64,000 nucleotides of DNA from a phage. Under the pieces are notes generated by a model, which saw only the letters and a program-made list of their open reading frames with translations, searched no databases and was not told the DNA's origin. The position numbers and the translations under genes were made by a program. Where the stretch lies: the sequence record PQ826431.1; one strand, given 5' to 3'. Shown one piece after another: positions 25,050 to 39,470 of the stretch. Numbering within the stretch: position 1 is the stretch's first letter; each line of letters begins with the position of its first letter.

Positions 25050-25865
25050 TTATTTGTTTAAGTGGTCTTCGACCATTTTAATGAAACCTTCATTGCTGAA
25101 GGCTGTTGCAGCTTTTTCTCGGTAAACAAAAACTCCACGATCTTCATAGAGAAGTGTTTCTTCGTAATTAACTCCAGGGTTAACTACAACCATTTTTGTA
25201 CCCATACTAAGTGCAGGAAATAATTCCCAATTAAAATTGATAACTTGGTTTGAACATCCTACTACTACAACCAAATCTTGCATGGTCAAAGTATCGAACA
25301 AGTGAGCCATATCTGCATACAAAGGTGCAGCCTCACCAAAAAATACAACATTAGGCTTCACCCAGTTATAATCATCTATGTTTATACTATTGTAACCAAT
25401 ATCTACCAGTGTTTTGTAATCTCCAGGATGCATACGGTAAACTACTTCAGGAAGATATCCGTGTACGTGAATAACAGAATCTCTGTCTACACCTGCTCGC
25501 TCTAGTAGATCATCAACGTTTGTTGTCAAGTTTACTATTTGGTTAGGATATTCCTTAAACCACTTTGCTATTTGAATATGTGCAGCATTAGGTTGTACAT
25601 CTTTAAGCTCAACACGTCTTTTGTTATAAAATTCGTGTGTTTTGGCATACAAATCCATACCGTTCTCGTCTACACCACCGACCACTGGAAGATCTGGAGA
25701 TGTTCTAACACGATAACCTGCTTGGAAAGCTCCAATATCGCAGACCTCTTCTAAATCATATTCTTCCCATAAAGCACGACCACTATCTGTGTCTGTTCTA
25801 AATGTTCGAATCCCACTGTCTGCACTTAAACCTGCACCGCTTACAAAAATCACTCGTCTTGGCAT
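25050..25865 (-). CDS. Sir2-family (sirtuin-like) NAD-binding protein, 271 aa
   Basis: N-terminal FVSGAGLSADSGIRTFR (sirtuin GAG-S-x-x-SGI-P-x-FR-like motif), IHVHG motif; no Zn-ribbon cysteines seen. Confidence 0.65.
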   Translation of the reverse strand: MPRRVIFVSGAGLSADSGIRTFRTDTDSGRALWEEYDLEEVCDIGAFQAGYRVRTSPDLPVVGGVDENGMDLYAKTHEFYNKRRVELKDVQPNAAHIQIAKWFKEYPNQIVNLTTNVDDLLERAGVDRDSVIHVHGYLPEVVYRMHPGDYKTLVDIGYNSINIDDYNWVKPNVVFFGEAAPLYADMAHLFDTLTMQDLVVVVGCSNQVINFNWELFPALSMGTKMVVVNPGVNYEETLLYEDRGVFVYREKAATAFSNEGFIKMVEDHLNK

Positions 25866-26335
25866 TCTTCCTCCTCAAATGGATCATAAGAATTGTACTC
25901 GTAAGTATCATCTTCTGAAAATTCTACTTCGAAATAAATATCAAACTCTGCAAACAGACGTAGGATGTTAGACATGCTGTAATAATTATCGTAGGCAGAT
26001 TCAGCTTCATAGTAAACATAAAGCAAATGGTTAGCCTTATCATCTTCCAAATATTTCCCGTCTGCATACGCATAGTCTGCATATGCTTTACCTGCATCTT
26101 CCACAAGAGAACGATCAAGCAGAGTAGGAAATGGTTTCTCTTTTTCTTTTAGTTTGCTCACTAACCAATGTGCAATATCATTCCATTCTGCATCCATACC
26201 ACTAAAGCAACTTGCTTCTTCTCCAAAAGAAGCTTCTCCTAAATCGCCACTAATACGAACAACATTAGATGAATTATAGCCACACGTTTCACAATCAGAG
26301 TAACTATTATGCACATTGACATTTACTTGAAACAT
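25850..26335 (-). CDS. hypothetical acidic protein (161 aa)
   Basis: ORF track; D/E/Y-rich. Confidence 0.55.
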   Translation of the reverse strand: MFQVNVNVHNSYSDCETCGYNSSNVVRISGDLGEASFGEEASCFSGMDAEWNDIAHWLVSKLKEKEKPFPTLLDRSLVEDAGKAYADYAYADGKYLEDDKANHLLYVYYEAESAYDNYYSMSNILRLFAEFDIYFEVEFSEDDTYEYNSYDPFEEEECQDE

Positions 26336-26393: not shown

Positions 26394-27047
26394 CTATACC
26401 AGACTTTCAAGGTATTTGTCAAGGGCTTCTTGATCACCTTGACAAACATAGCAACGGAAGTCTTGAGCCGAAGGTTGTTTATTTTCATCCCAATCCCAAT
26501 AAACATTACCTTTATAACGCGAGCCAGGGAACTCAAAAGAGGCTGTATGTGTAATGTATCCTGGGCCACCAGTGAAATCACAGAATGAGAATTGAGGGTA
26601 TGCCGCCTTTACTGCCTCAATAAACCAAGCTTTACGATCTAAAGCTTCATTGATGCTATACGCATGTCTCTCCATTTCTTCCCACGTTTTCCAGACACTT
26701 CTCTCATCAGGAGAAAAGACAAGCCATTCTGGAAGGTATAGAGTGTCATAGTAATCATCATATTCGATCTCGGAGGCGCACGAAGCTGACTCCTCCAGTT
26801 TTGAGTAATCAAAAGCAGAATATACCCACCAACCATCTTCCAGTAACGCTTTGATAGGGACGAAGCCTTTATCAGCATATTGATCGAATTGTTTGACACG
26901 GTGGCTTGTGCAGTCTTCAAACTCACATTCTAAACGATATGCACCTTTTCGACGAGCCTCAAGACCGTGTGTACTGAAAATAACAACACTTCCTTCACCA
27001 TCATTACGATCTACTTGATAAGCAACCACTGGTTTTGAATTTGACAT
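26394..27047 (-). CDS. hypothetical protein (217 aa)
   Basis: ORF track. Confidence 0.55.
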   Translation of the reverse strand: MSNSKPVVAYQVDRNDGEGSVVIFSTHGLEARRKGAYRLECEFEDCTSHRVKQFDQYADKGFVPIKALLEDGWWVYSAFDYSKLEESASCASEIEYDDYYDTLYLPEWLVFSPDERSVWKTWEEMERHAYSINEALDRKAWFIEAVKAAYPQFSFCDFTGGPGYITHTASFEFPGSRYKGNVYWDWDENKQPSAQDFRCYVCQGDQEALDKYLESLV

Positions 27048-27730
27048 TATTTCTCCTTATCTAGAAGATTGTTAGACAAAAACACTGCACGAGCAAAACC
27101 ACGTGCGGTTAGTGATCTAAGTTGTTTTGTTTTTGCACTAGCTCCACCTAAGCTTTTCCAACCCCAGAAGCAGCCTATATGATCTACTGGTTTCTTCACT
27201 GGTTGAACAAAACCATTGCCGTGCCAAATACAAGTTTTCTTTGTATACCCATCACGGGTAGGCATTTTAGGATGAAAACTTCCTTCCTCTTCAAACAAAT
27301 ACCCACCATACTCATAAGGATCAAAGTAAAAATCAGGTTTACGCCATAAGGTTGAAAGTTTACCTACTGGGTTTTCAATCATCCAAGGAACATTATATTT
27401 GTTACCCAAAGCTTCCACTACACGAATATTAGCTAAAGCTTCATCTAATTCCTCTGTGCTACGTTCGTGTTTGCTACCACTACCTGCTAACATAGTGCAG
27501 GGTGGAAATCCAAAAATAATATCGGGTTTAGGTATCCCATGATCTTCAGGGTTGAATGTAGAATCTATCCAGGCATTCACATAAGTTATGTTTGGGTGCT
27601 CCATCCTAACCTCGTATTTACCGTGATCCCCTTCATCAGCGTTTACACAAAAACACTTGTGACCTGCTTCGGCATAACGTAACACCATGATCCCAGATCC
27701 GTCAAACATAGACAAAACTGTTTTACTCAT
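27047..27730 (-). CDS. C5-cytosine methyltransferase-fold protein, short (227 aa), Pro-Cys-Thr in place of Pro-Cys-Gln
   Basis: motif I-like FDGSG, motif IV-like DIIFGFPPCTMLAGSG, motif VI-like ENPVGKL; track ORF trimmed to ATG after RBS GGAGGGG. Confidence 0.5.
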   Translation of the reverse strand: MSKTVLSMFDGSGIMVLRYAEAGHKCFCVNADEGDHGKYEVRMEHPNITYVNAWIDSTFNPEDHGIPKPDIIFGFPPCTMLAGSGSKHERSTEELDEALANIRVVEALGNKYNVPWMIENPVGKLSTLWRKPDFYFDPYEYGGYLFEEEGSFHPKMPTRDGYTKKTCIWHGNGFVQPVKKPVDHIGCFWGWKSLGGASAKTKQLRSLTARGFARAVFLSNNLLDKEK

Positions 27731-31788: not shown

Positions 31789-32531
31789 TAATCCTCCTCA
31801 AGAGTTGAATAAAATTGAAGACCACCGTCCATATCGAAATAAGCAAATGTTAAGTTATTATTGAACACAGATCCAGTATCCATATAAACACGATTCGCAT
31901 TGATAATAGGTGTTTTTACATAAGAGTGTCCATGAAACACATAATCCACACCCATCACAACAGGAAGTTTCATTCCCTCTTTAGCACAGTCTACCATATC
32001 TCTGTCCCACATAAGTGCTTCAGCAAAACGGTTTTCCTGTGTTTTTGTCATCTTCGAAATGTATTCTGGAATATCTGTTACAGGGAGATATTCCAAAGAA
32101 GATGGATACCCACCATGAATAAACGCAAGTTTCATGCCTCTGTAGTTAACAATGAGAACAACAGGTAAATCTTCTGTCATCATTGCTAAGGCTGTAGCTC
32201 CTTCTTCACCACATTCTTCAAAGACCGTATATCCTCCATTTTGATACCAACACTCGTAGTAGCTACGATCTCCTTCCAGCATACCTTTAATCATCATGTC
32301 TTCATGATTGCCACGAATAGCGTAGCGATTGTGTTTACGAGTAAATTCTAAAACACAACGAAAGTTTTGCTTTCCACGGTCAGTAAGATCTCCTAGAGAT
32401 ACAACCACATCTGTATCTCGGATACCTAACTTTGCCTTTCCTTTTTCATACAAATTATAACAACCGTGTAGATCTCCAATTATAAAAAGATCTTGATCGC
32501 TTTTAACAGTAATTTCTCTGTGTATGATCAC
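31788..32531 (-). CDS. Ser/Thr protein phosphatase (calcineurin-like metallophosphoesterase), 247 aa
   Basis: GDLHG, GDLTDRG and GNHE motifs. Confidence 0.85.
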   Translation of the reverse strand: MIIHREITVKSDQDLFIIGDLHGCYNLYEKGKAKLGIRDTDVVVSLGDLTDRGKQNFRCVLEFTRKHNRYAIRGNHEDMMIKGMLEGDRSYYECWYQNGGYTVFEECGEEGATALAMMTEDLPVVLIVNYRGMKLAFIHGGYPSSLEYLPVTDIPEYISKMTKTQENRFAEALMWDRDMVDCAKEGMKLPVVMGVDYVFHGHSYVKTPIINANRVYMDTGSVFNNNLTFAYFDMDGGLQFYSTLEED

Positions 32532-32857
32532 TTATCCTCCTCAAAATCTAAGAAAATAAAAATATTCACCTTTCCTTCAATCTCTTGTTCTAAAACAAGA
32601 TCGGCAAATTCTGCATAAGCTTTCTCTTCAACTTTTTCAATATGTTCTGCGGCATCTTTAAAAGGCGTATCCCCATCCACCTTTACTAATAAGAAAAGAG
32701 ATCGCATTTCGACGTTTTTACTGTTACGAGGAAGGAAATCTACAGCTTCAACAATTCTCCAACCCAAATAGCCAGGGGTTTTATGAATCTCCCCTAAATA
32801 CTTTTCTAAGATTTTACGACCCTCGTCGATAAGGGCTTGTTCTGTAGTAATTTCCAT
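32528..32857 (-). CDS. hypothetical protein (109 aa)
   Basis: ORF track. Confidence 0.55.
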   Translation of the reverse strand: MEITTEQALIDEGRKILEKYLGEIHKTPGYLGWRIVEAVDFLPRNSKNVEMRSLFLLVKVDGDTPFKDAAEHIEKVEEKAYAEFADLVLEQEIEGKVNIFIFLDFEEDK

Positions 32858-32867
32858 TCCTTCCTCC

Positions 32868-33458
32868 TCAAATTATTAACGAAACCGCATGACTAAATCT
32901 TGGTTCAGATATAACCTCTGCTACAGTCACATATGTATCGTGCAGCCAAAAAGATTCTACTCTACAAACACAAATACCGTTGATAATGAAATCTACACAG
33001 GCTTTATTATTTTCGCACACTTGTTGACTATAAACAACCCCTAAAGAGTCATAAAGTGATCTCACTGTTGCTACCATTTCATCTGTTTCGTCTTCCTGTG
33101 AAACAAAGAAAACGAATACAGACAAGTTATTAGCGAAAGTATTGCTATTCTCTACTTCAACCGACTTACAAGGTAAAAAGGAGTAATATTTACCGTTAGG
33201 TATCAATTTCGCCTCAACCTGGTTAAGTATGCTTTGAGATGGTTTTGTTACATAAAAAAGATTTTCTGTTGGGTTTTCAACATTGCTCCTTACTATGCAA
33301 CGAGTGGGGTTCGAAGGATCAAAAACATGATCGAAATCGACACACACAGGTAAGTTAACAACTTTAAACTTTTTGCTAAGAATGCTTACTGCTGTAAAAA
33401 TCAAACCAGCATTTATTTTGCCAGTGAAAGTTGAACGCATAACTACTCCTCGGATCAT
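32868..33458 (-). CDS. hypothetical protein (196 aa)
   Basis: ORF track. Confidence 0.55.
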   Translation of the reverse strand: MIRGVVMRSTFTGKINAGLIFTAVSILSKKFKVVNLPVCVDFDHVFDPSNPTRCIVRSNVENPTENLFYVTKPSQSILNQVEAKLIPNGKYYSFLPCKSVEVENSNTFANNLSVFVFFVSQEDETDEMVATVRSLYDSLGVVYSQQVCENNKACVDFIINGICVCRVESFWLHDTYVTVAEVISEPRFSHAVSLII

Positions 33459-33649
33459 TCTACCAAAGAGAATTCCGCCTCTTCCAGGTAGATTACAGAC
33501 CTTGTTGCATGATATTTAACGCTCCAGAAATTACCTTCGCGCCGTAAAAGTATCTCATTCACATCAAGATTGCTTAGAAAAACCATATAACTTAAAGCTT
33601 GTTGACGCGTTGAGAATTGTTTCTCTAAAAGTTCTTCTCCGCTCTGCAT
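33455..33649 (-). CDS. hypothetical protein (64 aa)
   Basis: ORF track; RBS AGGAGGG after hairpin. Confidence 0.5.
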   Translation of the reverse strand: MQSGEELLEKQFSTRQQALSYMVFLSNLDVNEILLRREGNFWSVKYHATRSVIYLEEAEFSLVE

Positions 33650-33694
33650 AATCCCTCCTTAAAATACTCCCTCCGAAAAGGGAGTATAAGTATA

Positions 33695-33898
33695 TCACGT
33701 AGTTGTTATGTTGTCTTCTTGGATACTAGAATCCACTTCTGCAAACATATCTTCTGCACTGTAATTATTTCCAGTCCAGCGTGATAAAAGGATAGCACCA
33801 ATCTCTTTTGCATGAGATTCGGACTCTGCATAAACGTTAGTCCCAGTGTCACCTTTTTTCTTTTCATGTGCATAAATGCAGTAATAATTGTAAGCCAT
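33695..33898 (-). CDS. hypothetical protein (67 aa)
   Basis: ORF track. Confidence 0.5.
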   Translation of the reverse strand: MAYNYYCIYAHEKKKGDTGTNVYAESESHAKEIGAILLSRWTGNNYSAEDMFAEVDSSIQEDNITTT

Positions 33899-34134
33899 TA
33901 ATCTTCCCAGTCATTGCCCTCGGTAGAGTGAACTAAAGCTCGCACGATACCACCGTAATCTACTGCCTGATTTGCAGCATGTTCGGCATAAACTTCAATG
34001 GCTTTTTTGAAGAAAAGAGCAGTAGCTGCTTCAATATTATCCATTTCGCCATCTACGTCAGTAGAAAGTGAAAGGTTGAGGCTTTCATCTACTTCATCAA
34101 AATCAATAGCCACTGTCATAATTAGTTTACCCAT
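33898..34134 (-). CDS. hypothetical acidic protein (78 aa)
   Basis: ORF track. Confidence 0.5.
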   Translation of the reverse strand: MGKLIMTVAIDFDEVDESLNLSLSTDVDGEMDNIEAATALFFKKAIEVYAEHAANQAVDYGGIVRALVHSTEGNDWED

Positions 34135-34146
34135 AGTTCACACTCC

Positions 34147-34656
34147 TTAAACAAAATAAAATGGTTGAGAGAGGCCCAAACGATTCTTTGGGTCGTATAC
34201 ATACCAAGCGTATGCTGTCTTATCTGTTCCACCTGCAACAAACGAAGGCCGTTCTGAAAGGACTATAAGGTTTGTTGGTGGATTCTTTTGATGGAACTCT
34301 CGTCGTTTCTTTGACTCCAAGAAGCCCAACCGAAGAAGATAAATACAAACATCCGCCTCTTTTAAGCTCTTTTCCAAGAACTCCATTGCTAACTTAAATG
34401 GAGGATTTGTGATTATAATGTCGGGACGATTTTCCCATTCATGACTAAAATAATCTTTACCTTCTTCAAGTTCGCAATATTCTGAACCTTCAGGAAAATG
34501 GCGATAAATCGCTTCAGCTTCACCTCTGCAAGGTTCTGCAAAAACCCAACCTTCTTCCTTTAGATTTTTGAAATCTATAACACTAAACAAACTATTGATT
34601 GCTTTTTGCGGTGTCGGATAATAATCGCTCGTTGGGCGATCATAATCTAATGCCAT
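34147..34656 (-). CDS. putative N6-adenine (amino-)methyltransferase-like protein, 169 aa
   Basis: catalytic-type IIITNPPF (N/D-PP-F/Y) motif and N-terminal YYPTP motif. Confidence 0.5.
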   Translation of the reverse strand: MALDYDRPTSDYYPTPQKAINSLFSVIDFKNLKEEGWVFAEPCRGEAEAIYRHFPEGSEYCELEEGKDYFSHEWENRPDIIITNPPFKLAMEFLEKSLKEADVCIYLLRLGFLESKKRREFHQKNPPTNLIVLSERPSFVAGGTDKTAYAWYVYDPKNRLGLSQPFYFV

Positions 34657-35074
34657 CTAAAATCTCCTCTTTTGTAATATTATCCAACTCTTTAAAGGAT
34701 GAAATCTCGTTTAATAATCCTATTTGATCAGCTTCTAGAGGATAAGTGTTTTTATCTGTTTTTCTAGACAGAATATCTTCAACAAACTTATCAATAGCCA
34801 AAGAAGAATCATAAAATTTTAAAAGTTGGTAATCCATAGGAGATATTTTGTCATCTCTTAGAAATATTTCTAACATGTTTTCAGGAGTATCATGGTTTAG
34901 TTTATGTTCACCAAAAATATTAACTTCATAAACATCTTTGCCAAACCAACGTTTCTTCTTTTCAACAGTATAGGTTTTTGCCACCAGACCATCTAAACAG
35001 TTTCTTGCCCTCTTACATGTTTGACGGTAAGAGTGGATAGCGCCTTCAACAAACTTAGCAGGAACTTGTAACAT
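34640..35074 (-). CDS. hypothetical protein (144 aa)
   Basis: track ORF trimmed to ATG after hairpin and RBS TAGGAGATTAATA. Confidence 0.5.
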   Translation of the reverse strand: MLQVPAKFVEGAIHSYRQTCKRARNCLDGLVAKTYTVEKKKRWFGKDVYEVNIFGEHKLNHDTPENMLEIFLRDDKISPMDYQLLKFYDSSLAIDKFVEDILSRKTDKNTYPLEADQIGLLNEISSFKELDNITKEEILDGIRL

Positions 35075-35120
35075 TATTAATCTCCTATGTTTAAGAAATG
35101 CCCCCGAAGGGGGCAGTTTG

Positions 35121-35813
35121 TTAAATAGCGGTTCCTTCGAAATCCGCCACATTTACGAGATTAATATTTTCAGATTTAGAAGTCAAGTTGTTTTCTGCAA
35201 CAGATTTTTCTTCAGTATCCGCCTCGTTACCTGCCACGTTACGAGGTTCTTCTTCACCGTAGGGATTACCGAATTTCAAAAGATTGATCAATTCTTCTTT
35301 GGAGAAGTTTTCTAAATCATCATCTGTTAATTCAATAATCTCGTCTTGTTCTTCAATAAATGTTTCACCACCAGAAAAAGCATCTCGCTTTTTAGCTACT
35401 TCCATAGCCTGTTCTGGTGTTGCTCCTGCATCAAGAGCAGCTAAAGCAAAGTCTGACCCGCTTCCTACCGCATAATATTCTTCATCAATCGGATATGCAC
35501 GTGTTGGGTTGTTACCTTCGTGCAGGAAAATACGTCCATCTGGATGAACAACAAGTGCAATAAACTCTTCATCTTCTTTATCTGGATCAGAGTGAATCAT
35601 CAAACCAGGGACAGCATCACGTGCTGCTTCGCACTGTAGATTTTGTTCAAACCATTGAAAGAAAGAAAGCACGGAGGTCAGACGACCAGCACCGCCTACA
35701 AGGTAATCTCCAATTTTTCGGACCTTTTTGAAATTAATAGAATCTACACGTCCACCAAAAGTTACCTTACCGTCACTCAAAATCTTATTTTTGGTCGCAA
35801 TAATTGTCGTCAC
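35121..35813 (-). CDS. HslV-like (proteasome beta-type, N-terminal Thr) peptidase with acidic C-terminal extension, 230 aa
   Basis: MTTIIATKN N-terminus, GGRV, LVGGAGR, AVGSGSDFALAAL resemble HslV/ClpQ. Confidence 0.55.
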   Translation of the reverse strand: MTTIIATKNKILSDGKVTFGGRVDSINFKKVRKIGDYLVGGAGRLTSVLSFFQWFEQNLQCEAARDAVPGLMIHSDPDKEDEEFIALVVHPDGRIFLHEGNNPTRAYPIDEEYYAVGSGSDFALAALDAGATPEQAMEVAKKRDAFSGGETFIEEQDEIIELTDDDLENFSKEELINLLKFGNPYGEEEPRNVAGNEADTEEKSVAENNLTSKSENINLVNVADFEGTAI

Positions 35814-36316
35814 TATTCTTCCTCCTCTGTTAATGTTTTAAGAACCGCTTTCCCGCCATTCACATATTTGCAGATGTATTCTATCGCACGTAGTGTCTCT
35901 TTGTCAACAAAAATTTGATCAGACGTTGCGAGCGGGTTATTAAGAAGATCACTGCAATCACGAACAAGCAGTGCTTTCTTATTAAACAAATTACTTAAGA
36001 ACAGTAACTTCGCCTCTTCTTCTGTTATGTGCAGAAGGCTAGGATCGGAGCCAGCTATTCCTATTATACAATCAAACAAGCTTTCTTTACTATCAGAAAG
36101 TTCTTGAAAATGGTTTAAAAGCCAATCTTCTCCTAGACACCAACATTTAAACATTTCCAGTTTATCTCGGAGGGTCATATTCTCTAAAGTAAGAGCAATC
36201 TCTTTTTCAATATGGTTTACACAAATTTGACGAAATTCGTTAGGTTTTACGAGTCCCGTTTGATAGCACTCATCTATACCGCTTCTTCCGATAGCTATTG
36301 TTGCTACACCCATCAA
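35813..36316 (-). CDS. hypothetical protein (167 aa)
   Basis: ORF track. Confidence 0.55.
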   Translation of the reverse strand: MMGVATIAIGRSGIDECYQTGLVKPNEFRQICVNHIEKEIALTLENMTLRDKLEMFKCWCLGEDWLLNHFQELSDSKESLFDCIIGIAGSDPSLLHITEEEAKLLFLSNLFNKKALLVRDCSDLLNNPLATSDQIFVDKETLRAIEYICKYVNGGKAVLKTLTEEEE

Positions 36317-36348
36317 TCCTCCTTATAAATGGCTTCCCTGCCACATTA

Positions 36349-37107
36349 TTAAATAAACACTTCAGTAATCAGTTTAGACAAACGTCCACGTTTATTATCG
36401 TCCGTTGTCAGTTCAACATATCCAATAAAATCTACAATTGGCTCACGAACACCCTCTTCATTCTCTGGATATAAAAGTTCCAAAATTTGATGCAGACCAT
36501 TGCTACGTTTTTTAATTGCATATGTCTGGCGAACATCGCCTAATACAATAACATGCGTATTAATACCTGCACGTTCAATAAGAAGTTTAAGTGTTTCTGT
36601 TGACATAAGTTGTGCTTCGTCAATAATGACGATTGTATTATCCAGGGTAGCCCCCAACAAATAGTTAGGAATATTCAATTCGATCTTACCTGATCCAATA
36701 TCGTTTTCCAATTTGTTGGCTGTCATGAATTGCTGGAAAATACGTTTTGTAGATTCATAGTGTGCTGCTAGTTTATCTGTTTTATCCCCAGACAAGAAAC
36801 CAATCTGGTCATCTCCGACTTCAGTAGGGTTCTTGATAAAAAGTAGTTTACGGAAGTCTCCTGAACGAAGCATCTGCAAAGCTTTCCATAAAGCAACAGA
36901 GGTTTTACCAGTCCCTGCCGGAGCATTTACAACAGTCAGATCATTCCAAATCATGCTTTGAACAATCTTATTTTGGTCCCCTTCAGGCATAAATTCATCT
37001 AAACGGTAATCGTCATTACCTACCGCTTTTGCTGCATAACGGCTTTCAATCTTTGCTGAATTAGCCAGTTTCTGCCGTTGTGTTTTAGCTGCGGTTTTAT
37101 TTCCCAT
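36349..37107 (-). CDS. phoH: PhoH-like ATPase
   Basis: Walker A APAGTGKTSVAL, IIDEAQL and GDVRQ motifs; track ORF trimmed to ATG after RBS AAAAGGAGTG. Confidence 0.85.
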   Translation of the reverse strand: MGNKTAAKTQRQKLANSAKIESRYAAKAVGNDDYRLDEFMPEGDQNKIVQSMIWNDLTVVNAPAGTGKTSVALWKALQMLRSGDFRKLLFIKNPTEVGDDQIGFLSGDKTDKLAAHYESTKRIFQQFMTANKLENDIGSGKIELNIPNYLLGATLDNTIVIIDEAQLMSTETLKLLIERAGINTHVIVLGDVRQTYAIKKRSNGLHQILELLYPENEEGVREPIVDFIGYVELTTDDNKRGRLSKLITEVFI

Positions 37108-37807: not shown

Positions 37808-38068
37808 TTACTCCGCAATTTGAGCCATGAGATCACGCAGTTCGGTAAAACCGCCTACGTATGTTACCTCCCCGTTCACTTCAGACAGAATTTGTGGAAA
37901 TGTGCGTGGAGGAACTCCGGTAAGATCAACAACTGTTTTAGTCATTGATTCTAAATCATAGTCTTGATCAAGACTTAAATATTCAAACTGTTTATTGCGC
38001 ATGGTTAATAGTTGTTTTGACATTTCGCAAAATTGACAGTTAGGTTTACCAAAAATTACAAATTCCAT
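37808..38068 (-). CDS. glutaredoxin-like protein (NrdC/NrdH-type), 86 aa
   Basis: thioredoxin-fold CxxC (KPNCQFC) and TFPQI...GG motif. Confidence 0.75.
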   Translation of the reverse strand: MEFVIFGKPNCQFCEMSKQLLTMRNKQFEYLSLDQDYDLESMTKTVVDLTGVPPRTFPQILSEVNGEVTYVGGFTELRDLMAQIAE

Positions 38069-38910
38069 TACCTCTCCTTATTAAGTAATACTGCTAAAGA
38101 CTGTTCAATACCTTTATTTAAATCTGATTTTGTAAGATAGTGACTGGTTACTAGTTGTGACTTCACCGGACGTGCTGCTGGAGCATTATAGGTTGAAGCT
38201 GATACCGCCGATATCTTAACAGGTTCTGGCATCTGTGTCAAGATCTTTTCCGCAAACTCCGCCCAAGAAATAAAATGGCTTCCTGCAAAATGGTAAGTCT
38301 TAACAGACCTTGACCAACCTGTTTTTAATACTTCAAAAATAGCTTCTGCTAAATCTGGAGCATATGTTGGACAAGAGAACTGATCAGCAACAACAATAAA
38401 ATCACGTTGTCCATCATTATAGCGAGACAACATGGTTTTTAGAAAGTTATTTCCAAATTCGCTATATACCGAGGCTGTTCGAATAATATATGCATTTGGG
38501 TTAACTCCTCGCACCATTTTTTCACCAAGTTCTTTCGTATACCCATAATTGTTTATTGGGTTAGGTGTAGTATCTTCAAAAATAGGATGAGAATAATTAA
38601 AAATATAATCTGTAGAAATATGCACAAAATCAATTTTAAGTTTGCTGCACACTGCCGCAATATTTGCAGGTCCATACGCATTAACAGCCAAAGCAGTAGC
38701 AAAATCATGTTCTGCTTTATCTACAGCCGTATAAGCGGCGCAATTAATAACACCATCTACATAATCTTCAACAATAGCGTTTCGCACAGCTTCAAAATTT
38801 GTAATATCTACACGTTCTTTAGGATAAATTAAAGATACATTTGAAGGAACCACTTTACGTAAAGCTTGTCCCAGTTGTCCATTACCGCCCAATACCAGAT
38901 ATGTTAGCAT
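38068..38910 (-). CDS. rmlD: dTDP-4-dehydrorhamnose reductase
   Basis: GGNGQLG, INCAAYTAVDKAE, HISTDYIF, YGYTKELGEK (YxxxK), RTASVY..GNNFLKTML closely match RmlD. Confidence 0.85.
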   Translation of the reverse strand: MLTYLVLGGNGQLGQALRKVVPSNVSLIYPKERVDITNFEAVRNAIVEDYVDGVINCAAYTAVDKAEHDFATALAVNAYGPANIAAVCSKLKIDFVHISTDYIFNYSHPIFEDTTPNPINNYGYTKELGEKMVRGVNPNAYIIRTASVYSEFGNNFLKTMLSRYNDGQRDFIVVADQFSCPTYAPDLAEAIFEVLKTGWSRSVKTYHFAGSHFISWAEFAEKILTQMPEPVKISAVSASTYNAPAARPVKSQLVTSHYLTKSDLNKGIEQSLAVLLNKER

Positions 38911-39470
38911 ACACCCTCGCTACGTAACTGTTGAAAAGATTTAGCCATTGCATCTTTTGTTGATAGGATAGGTTTAAAACCTTCGTCAAAAATCATATCG
39001 AAGCCCCAATCGATCCCTATGTCAGGATCATCCCAACGTAAACTTTGTTCACTAGAAGGGTCGTATGGAGTTGTGCATTTGTATTCAAAGATCGCATCCA
39101 TACTCAAAACTATAAAACCATGTGCCAAACCAGGAGGAAGCCAAAACTGCGTATGGTGTCGTGCACGAAGAACAACACCGTCCCAAGCACCGTAAGTTGG
39201 ACTGTCTTTACGTAAGTCTACAGCGAAATCCAATACTTCCCCACTTACACAACGAACAAGCTTACCTTGCGGATTATTTGTTTGAAAGTGCATTCCTCGC
39301 AAAACACCGAAGTTTGATTTAGACATATTATCTTGAACGAAAGTTTGTTTACCAATAATATCTTCGTATTTTTGTTCATTGTATGTTTCTAAAAAGAAAC
39401 CACGATCATCTTTATAAACGTCTGGTTTGATAATTACCGCACCTTCAATTTTTGTTTTTTCTACTTTCAT
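38904..39470 (-). CDS. rmlC: dTDP-4-dehydrorhamnose 3,5-epimerase
   Basis: DDRGFFLETY, FVQDN-SKS-FGVLRGMHFQ match RmlC cupin signature. Confidence 0.85.
   Translation of the reverse strand: MKVEKTKIEGAVIIKPDVYKDDRGFFLETYNEQKYEDIIGKQTFVQDNMSKSNFGVLRGMHFQTNNPQGKLVRCVSGEVLDFAVDLRKDSPTYGAWDGVVLRARHHTQFWLPPGLAHGFIVLSMDAIFEYKCTTPYDPSSEQSLRWDDPDIGIDWGFDMIFDEGFKPILSTKDAMAKSFQQLRSEGVC

Follow-up and report, generated by a model that had tools for sequence, protein, structure and literature searches.

The window, by which we mean the whole 64,000-nt stretch of phage DNA that was analyzed, encodes a 169-aa protein that is, almost certainly, a DNA adenine methyltransferase of very small size. We consider it probable, and by a comfortable measure, that this protein is an orphan S-adenosylmethionine (SAM)-dependent DNA N6-adenine methyltransferase that lacks a target-recognition domain and acts on replicating phage DNA, most likely at GATC. 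The fold, motifs, family, and synteny behind this explanation come from our analysis of the window, while the GATC m6A signal, its loss in a T83P mutant, and the triggering of retrons come from the literature on an ortholog that is 48% identical. By analogy, the window protein would share the activity and the target of that ortholog, although at 48% identity the target need not be the same. The original prediction of a compact N6-adenine (amino) DNA methyltransferase is borne out by the motif order, by a fold in common with M.TaqI, MmeI, CamA, and HsdM, by remote homology to the Dam protein of phage HP1, and by the T83P data for the ortholog.

The gene and the elements upstream of it are as follows.
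34147..34656, minus strand: coding sequence of the compact methyltransferase, 169 aa, ATG start (ORF list; PHROG 799 match).
34664..34669, minus strand: Shine-Dalgarno sequence GAGGAG, 7 nt 5′ of the methyltransferase ATG (sequence reading).
34640..35075, minus strand: upstream gene, PHROG 15078, function not assigned (ORF list and anhysbys annotation).
35099..35115, minus strand: GC-rich terminator-like hairpin, TGCCCCCTTCGGGGGCA followed by a T-rich tail (sequence).

The ORF had been proposed without a strand, which is minus; its coordinates proved exact, as did the reported IIITNPPF (aa 80 to 87) and YYPTP (within DYYPTP, aa 11 to 16). The source phage is a Phapecoctavirus, a phAPEC8-like Escherichia coli myovirus (Stephanstirmvirinae). 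At 99.7% identity, positions 32000 to 37000 match Escherichia phage anhysbys as well as more than 50 other Phapecoctavirus genomes. In the anhysbys RefSeq record, the ortholog (JR321_gp183; YP_009985526) is labeled “DNA methyltransferase” (VOG0822), and proteins with 100% identity occur in other deposited phages, several of them under the same label (tblastn). Because identical proteins already carry this annotation, the gene is no new discovery. It is an ordinary gene, since it is annotated in dozens of near-identical phages, and methylation of GATC by a counterpart with 48% identity was demonstrated in 2025. Several records labeled as phages of Campylobacter, Acinetobacter, or Klebsiella (for example, the MG0656xx series, vB_AbaM_ABPW7, and ZCKP1) are 98 to 100% identical in these genes to rV5-like or phAPEC8-like phages of E. 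coli, which suggests host mislabeling, contamination, or a very broad host range.

According to the anhysbys RefSeq annotation, the methyltransferase gene lies within a long minus-strand block of early and middle genes that includes PhoH, an HslV-like peptidase, ribonucleotide reductase, ThyX, and a polymerase exonuclease; no restriction endonuclease gene is annotated beside it. The stop of the upstream PHROG 15078 gene overlaps the methyltransferase start by 17 nt, and because of this overlap the two genes are likely to be translationally coupled. Mechanically, the longest upstream ORF spans 34640..35152, but the hairpin at 35099..35115, which separates the HslV-like peptidase gene from the gp184-methyltransferase gene pair, falls inside it; therefore, the real start of the upstream gene is probably at about 35075, as annotated in anhysbys. 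The PHROG 15078 protein has no Pfam match. We considered it as a partner or specificity subunit and rejected it, because it is absent beside the Vequintavirus and Seunavirus orthologs and the gene pair is not co-conserved outside the Stephanstirmvirinae.

Conservation of the 169-aa protein was read from an alignment of 50 diverse homologs. Fifteen positions are invariant (T15, E41, P42, C43, T83, N84, P85, P86, F93, L107, R118, R136, P137, F139, and W151). Five segments, all on the minus strand, hold invariant or nearly invariant residues.
34609..34626, minus strand: motif X-like DYYPTP, aa 11 to 16; T15 invariant, Y13 and P16 nearly so.
34516..34542, minus strand: motif I region FAEPCRGEA, aa 39 to 47; E41, P42, and C43 invariant, G45 nearly so.
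34447..34467, minus strand: EEGKDYF, aa 64 to 70; G66, D68, and Y69 nearly invariant.
34396..34422, minus strand: catalytic motif IV DIIITNPPF, aa 79 to 87; T83, N84, P85, and P86 invariant.
34240..34251, minus strand: RPSF, candidate motif VIII, aa 136 to 139; R136, P137, and F139 invariant.

The order of the motifs (YxTP, EPCRGxG, NPPF, RPSF; that is, X-I-IV) is that of the gamma class of amino-methyltransferases: both YPTP (aa 13 to 16) and EPCRG (aa 41 to 45) lie N-terminal to NPPF (aa 84 to 87). YYPTP and NPPF had been singled out as typical of amino-methyltransferases, and this holds, with the order X-I-IV and an NPP(F/Y) that is invariant across the 50 homologs. Motifs X and I align with those of a type I-like M subunit, whose FYTP (7vru_A), like the WATP of HP1 Dam, is the counterpart of DYYPTP. 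In the predicted structure, aa 39 to 41 of FAEPCRGEA form a strand, and the loop after strand beta1 is presumed to bind SAM, by analogy with gamma-class methyltransferases. The arginine and phenylalanine of RPSF are also found in HP1 Dam (R123 and F126), and the phenylalanine would stack on the flipped adenine.

The family to which the protein belongs is very large. It matches PHROG 799, “DNA methyltransferase,” over residues 4 to 163 (profile search, E = 2.8e−59), and tblastn places the family in 544 phage records, with hosts that include Escherichia, Vibrio, Klebsiella, Aeromonas, Staphylococcus, and Caulobacter. An exhaustive profile search recovered 13,677 cluster representatives (clusters at 50% identity) at E ≤ 1e−3, 7,169 of them at E ≤ 1e−10; nearly all members of this PHROG 799-type family are 160 to 220 aa long. 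Against the 85%-identical Justusliebigvirus ortholog, dN/dS is 0.048. With the confident AlphaFold model described below, the PHROG 799 match, the 544 records, the 13,677 clusters, and this dN/dS place the observation well beyond chance. In some members, RPSF is followed by a Cys-rich zinc-ribbon insertion, or the C terminus bears a zinc ribbon or an extension; examples are P0070, kp12 of Vibrio phage Kappa (L003:3971-4585), and a 226-aa Seunavirus protein (L068:2474-3154). These additions are possibly add-on DNA-binding modules on a core that has no recognition domain.

Scans of the 169-aa protein and the 50 homologs against Pfam and NCBIfam gave nothing above threshold, and for the 169-aa protein NCBIfam gave zero matches. 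The Pfam matches of the window protein are sub-threshold and confined to motifs: EcoRI_methylase (E = 0.02, 14.7 bits against a cut-off of 26.4) and MTS (E = 0.29, 11.2 bits against a cut-off of 23). Among the 50 homologs, sub-threshold matches are to EcoRI_methylase (42/50), Dam PF05869 (19/50), MTS (14/50), and Eco57I (10/50), so that families of DNA adenine methyltransferases predominate. Of the profiles that the original prediction had put forward, N6_N4_Mtase and MT-A70 did not match, and Dam (PF05869) did so only below threshold, as did the related EcoRI_methylase, Eco57I, and N6_Mtase models. Among RNA methyltransferase models, RrnaAD had no match and MTS stayed below threshold for the window protein. 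When the protein and the family profile were run against PDB sequences, only motif-level or chance matches came back (MglB; the PacII M protein at E = 0.05).

The bacterial homologs, examined at 63 loci in many phyla, are located in prophage-like early regions. Among 150 neighbor proteins at these loci, the commonest Pfam families are phage replication protein GPA and C5 DNA methylase (6 each); HTH repressors, Pol III beta, S24 peptidase, DnaB, and GemA are also frequent, and no restriction endonuclease is among the 25 most frequent families. Because no restriction endonuclease is adjacent in the phage or among these top 25 neighbor families, the enzyme is an orphan, one that keeps company with genes for replication and for other DNA methylases.

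The AlphaFold2 model of the protein (pLDDT 90.8, pTM 0.87) is a bare and somewhat reduced class I Rossmann SAM-methyltransferase core. Its structural neighbors are gamma-type N6-adenine enzymes of EC 2.1.1.72 (M.TaqI, MmeI, CamA, and HsdM) together with m6A RNA methyltransferases. In order of structural match, they are PH1948 (METTL5-like; RNA, 13.3), MmeI (DNA, 13.1), METTL5 (RNA, 12.9), M.TaqI (DNA, 12.9), M.BseCI (DNA, 12.1), HsdM (DNA, 12.0), ErmC′ (RNA, 12.0), and CamA (DNA, 11.7). The single best neighbor is an RNA m6A methyltransferase, and the fold comparison does not separate DNA from RNA adenine methyltransferases. Foldseek ranked M.TaqI first, with TM-scores of only ~0.5 to 0.6, and hence there is no close solved structure. 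In the best structural matches, the alignment with the neighbors' catalytic cores takes in 140 to 159 of the 169 residues. Because the core takes up this much of the protein, there is no room for a target-recognition domain; neither a separate domain of this kind in the model nor a co-conserved specificity partner in the phage and bacterial neighborhoods was found.

A more specific link leads to the Dam protein of Haemophilus phage HP1. HP1 Dam is said to be specific for GATC, a finding that PMC7556043 credits to Piekarowicz and Bujnicki (1999). The protein is the product of orf13 (173 aa), which matches the Pfam family PF05869, “Dam,” with 250.8 bits (E = 7.1e−75) and is the founding member of that family. 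We compared the profile of the 50 homologs with a profile of 17 HP1 Dam relatives and found that the two families align over 125 columns (hhalign, probability 94.8%, E = 4.8e−8). The alignment pairs YPTP of the window family with WATP of the HP1 Dam family, NPPFS with NPPYS, an S..K..F segment after strand beta5 with the same segment, and RPSF with RIPF. At the PF05869 gathering threshold (28.1 bits), the window protein does not match, and the 19 sub-threshold homologs reach E = 0.0046 at best, with a bit score that falls far short of the threshold. In the P2-like Vibrio phage Kappa, a family member occupies the same early/replication module in which HP1 carries dam. On this profile comparison, the window family is a sister group to the HP1 Dam type that has no Pfam model of its own. 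HP1 orf13 is named as a phage Dam in PMC7556043.

Experimental data exist for an ortholog in the Vequintavirinae. In a 2025 study of retrons in PLoS Biology (PMC12548924), mutants of BASEL phage Bas51 that escaped the retrons Asa1 and Squ1 were all mutated in a phage “N6 adenine methyltransferase,” and re-engineered D69G, D79G, and T83P substitutions in this enzyme abolished defense by both retrons. Nanopore 6mA calling gave a GATC logo for wild-type Bas51 DNA, and the signal was lost in T83P (PMC12548924): calls at GATC, GTAC, and other m6A sites numbered 1405, 509, and 576 in the wild type and 35, 511, and 349 in T83P (S4 Table of PMC12548924). Because GATC m6A was nearly lost in the mutant on a Dam+ host, host Dam barely contributes to virion methylation, and therefore it is the phage enzyme that keeps the genome methylated. 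Toxicity of the enzyme was also seen in E. coli that carried no retron (PMC12548924), and this toxicity, with the drop in “other” calls from 576 to 349, hints at a relaxed specificity.

We strongly infer that the Bas51 enzyme and the window protein belong to the same family, on the basis of the BASEL annotation string, the near-identical enzymes of sister phages, and three matching residues. The syntenic gene in BASEL Vequintavirus genomes carries the label “putative N6 adenine methyltransferase” (bas49_0177, bas52_0174, bas56_0172, and bas59_0157), and these four orthologs are at least 98% identical. The Bas52 protein (bas52_0174) has aspartate at 69 and 79 and threonine at 83, which are the Bas51 escape positions, and is 48% identical to the window protein over its full length (BLASTP, 168 aligned residues, small gaps only). 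The escape positions D69, D79, and T83 align with D68, D79, and T83 of the window protein, which are invariant or nearly invariant in the family. The gene order PhoH, protease, methyltransferase is common to Vequintavirus, Seunavirus, Justusliebigvirus, and the window phage.

The favored explanation can be put as a sequence of steps. The gene would be transcribed with the early and middle DNA-metabolism genes of the phage; in the product, the N-terminal YxTP motif and the EPCRGxG loop would bind SAM, and NPPF with the invariant phenylalanine of RPSF would hold a flipped adenine. Recognition of the target would have to come from the basic region at 110 to 128 (with the invariant R118), the loop at 134 to 148, and possibly the N-terminal arm (R7). 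A Dam-like activity at GATC would then make the phage independent of the slow Dam of its host. The invariance of the catalytic motifs in the 50 homologs, the dN/dS of 0.048, the predominance of DNA adenine methyltransferase families among the sub-threshold Pfam matches, the profile link to HP1 Dam, the conserved synteny, the Bas52 alignment with the Bas51 nanopore counts, the replication and methylase genes beside bacterial homologs, and the lack of GATC avoidance in the window count for this explanation; the missing curated Pfam or NCBIfam model, an RNA m6A methyltransferase as the top structural neighbor, and the lack of a recognizable DNA-reading domain count against it. Together with PF05869, the family may exemplify a minimal mode of reading 4 bp, in which a 169-residue core reads GATC through two core loops and an N-terminal arm, without a solved precedent and with a target that has possibly drifted or relaxed; we advance this only tentatively. 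Such minimal recognition of GATC is perhaps loose, perhaps exerted as a dimer, or perhaps directed at single-stranded or hairpin DNA such as retron msDNA.

The benefit to the phage is a separate question. Evasion of restriction, the purpose named in the original prediction, is unsupported: according to the BASEL authors, phages related to the window phage are exceptionally sensitive to restriction-modification systems, and because of this an anti-restriction role is unproven. The sensitive group includes the phi92-like phages (BASEL authors), whose ortholog is 85% identical to the window protein. This sensitivity is in keeping with a narrow GATC specificity and speaks against methylation that protects broadly. 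The sole biological consequence demonstrated for the ortholog, the triggering of retron defense, is negative for the phage (PMC12548924). The phage may benefit through protection from DpnII/MboI-type enzymes, through escape from nicking by MutH, or through effects on packaging or gene regulation of the kind known from other phages that encode Dam. dTDP-4-dehydrorhamnose reductase and epimerase genes are annotated in anhysbys among the DNA-metabolism genes (~38068 to 39470, minus strand). Olsen et al. speculated that rhamnose-type genes glycosylate modified bases, and the BASEL authors found no evident restriction protection from the rhamnose machinery of phi92-like phages.

The window shows no avoidance of GATC (305 sites, observed/expected [O/E] 1.03), nor of GCGC (O/E 1.07), TGCA (1.02), or GATATC (1.01). 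Strongly avoided palindromes are GTAC (66 sites, O/E 0.36), CCGG (22 sites, 0.35), GGCC (27 sites, 0.38), and CTAG (67 sites, 0.51). The palindromes that are not avoided may be sites masked by phage or host methylation, and the lack of GATC avoidance is weakly compatible with GATC protection. Because the host also has Dam, however, over- or underrepresentation of GATC is only weakly informative.

These data bear on the alternative that survives best, a DNA N6-adenine methyltransferase whose target differs from GATC or whose specificity is relaxed or nearly absent, which we consider unlikely. Because there is no target-recognition domain in the model, specificity could drift between orthologs that are only 48% identical, and the decrease in “other” m6A calls in Bas51 T83P and the retron-free toxicity hint at off-target activity. 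However, the two orthologs agree well in their candidate DNA-contact segments (LRLxFLESK, RPSF, and TDxxAYA), GATC enzymes also occur in the remotely related HP1 Dam family, and GATC specifically is not avoided in the window. Nonspecific methylation of adenines also agrees poorly with the sensitivity that relatives retain to EcoRI and EcoRV-type systems.

That the protein instead methylates rRNA or tRNA (m6A or m2G), or glutamine in proteins, is much less probable. NPPF is common to METTL5, Erm/KsgA, RsmC/D, and HemK, 14 of the 50 homologs have the sub-threshold MTS match, and tRNA-related functions are encoded nearby in the phage. Nevertheless, a loss-of-function mutation in the ortholog strips GATC m6A from phage DNA, the profile homology is to HP1 Dam and to no RNA methyltransferase family, the genomic neighbors are replication genes and DNA methylases, and the protein has no RNA-binding extension. 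Least probable of all is that the fold is catalytically active but kept mainly for a nonenzymatic or regulatory role (a decoy, a SAM sink, or a partner of the upstream protein) with methylation incidental: the 17-nt overlap with the upstream ORF, the absence of visible protection of relatives from the tested restriction systems, and the liability of triggering retrons would fit, but no catalytic residue varies in thousands of clusters, co-conservation of the upstream gene ends with the phage subfamily, dN/dS is 0.048, and DNA methylation is clear for the ortholog.

The DNA N6-adenine methyltransferase favored here may not be the only modification enzyme of the phage.
27047..27730, minus strand: second compact methyltransferase-like gene, 227 aa from MSKT..., PHROG 757, C5-type motifs.
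The C5-methyltransferase-like gene that had been placed 7 kb away is indeed present, about 6.4 to 7.6 kb distant. Its product matches PHROG 757, “DNA methyltransferase” (E = 1.8e−84), and carries the C5-type motifs FDGSG, PPC, and ENP; it has no Pfam match and only weak similarity to M.HaeIII. This second gene was found in 1,488 phage records, including rV5-like phages (48% identity). Because this second gene has C5 motifs, a pair of distinct modification activities, as originally proposed, is plausible; the restriction evasion attached to that proposal is the part left unsupported. In Bas51, GTAC m6A calls were unchanged in T83P (509 versus 511), which the authors left unexplained (PMC12548924), and the PHROG 757 enzyme could be behind this signal, either directly or through a miscalled neighboring modified base. 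GTAC was called the most depleted palindrome of the window (O/E 0.36, with CCGG at 0.35). A Sir2-like gene (NAD-dependent deacetylase family) is annotated in anhysbys at ~25056 to 25871, minus strand, ~1.2 kb from the second methyltransferase gene.

With an experimentally assigned GATC activity in the family, the annotation outcome for the window gene is routine. More than 13,000 clusters at 50% identity are nevertheless without a Pfam or NCBIfam model or a solved structure. Because there is no such model, standard domain scans miss the family; many of its records have been left as “hypothetical protein” by domain-based pipelines, and their precomputed Pfam fields are blank. The residual interest lies in this missing curated model and in an architecture without a recognition domain for which no structure has been solved. 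The enzyme is known to be a liability in rV5/phAPEC8-group coliphages used for therapy, since it triggers retron abortive infection and gives no visible protection against common restriction systems, and it is therefore relevant to host-range prediction. Beyond the retron paper, searches of the literature on methylomes of Phapecoctavirus, Stephanstirmvirinae, or rV5, or on the biochemistry of the window protein, turned up only statements at the level of genome announcements.

Among known systems, the closest is the Bas51-type enzyme, which shares with the window protein the PHROG/VOG family, the size (177 versus 169 aa), and the place downstream of PhoH and the protease. The two differ in 52% of residues and in the catalytic motif (NPPF in the window protein, NPPY in Vequintavirus), and the window phage has an extra small gene between the protease and the methyltransferase. 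HP1 Dam is likewise a single-domain phage enzyme of ~170 aa (173 versus 169) without a target-recognition domain, with the same N-terminal aromatic-x-TP, NPP(Y/F)S, and R-x-x-F; however, the window family retains a canonical, glycine-containing motif I, EPCRGxG, in place of the DLDxCA of HP1 Dam, and identity in the aligned columns is 13%. In M.TaqI, MmeI, M.BseCI, CamA, and HsdM, a large C-terminal or separate recognition domain or subunit brings the total to 382 to 1500 aa, whereas the window protein ends with the core, and its sequence matches to gamma-class families (Pfam Eco57I and N6_Mtase) are all sub-threshold. With METTL5/PH1948 and Erm/KsgA there is no significant sequence relationship, and the likeness is at the level of the fold. 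The classical Dam enzymes of E. coli and phages T2 and T4 are of the alpha class (Pfam MethyltransfD12, DPPY motif, ~260 to 280 aa). Their motifs follow the alpha order, and an inserted target-recognition domain separates the SAM-binding half from the catalytic half. MethyltransfD12 did not match in the Pfam scans of the window protein and its homologs; what the window protein shares with classical Dam is the predicted product, m6A in GATC. T-even, T1, and P1 phages encode a Dam-type enzyme of their own although their host has Dam, and the window phage, too, carries its own enzyme despite the Dam of its host.
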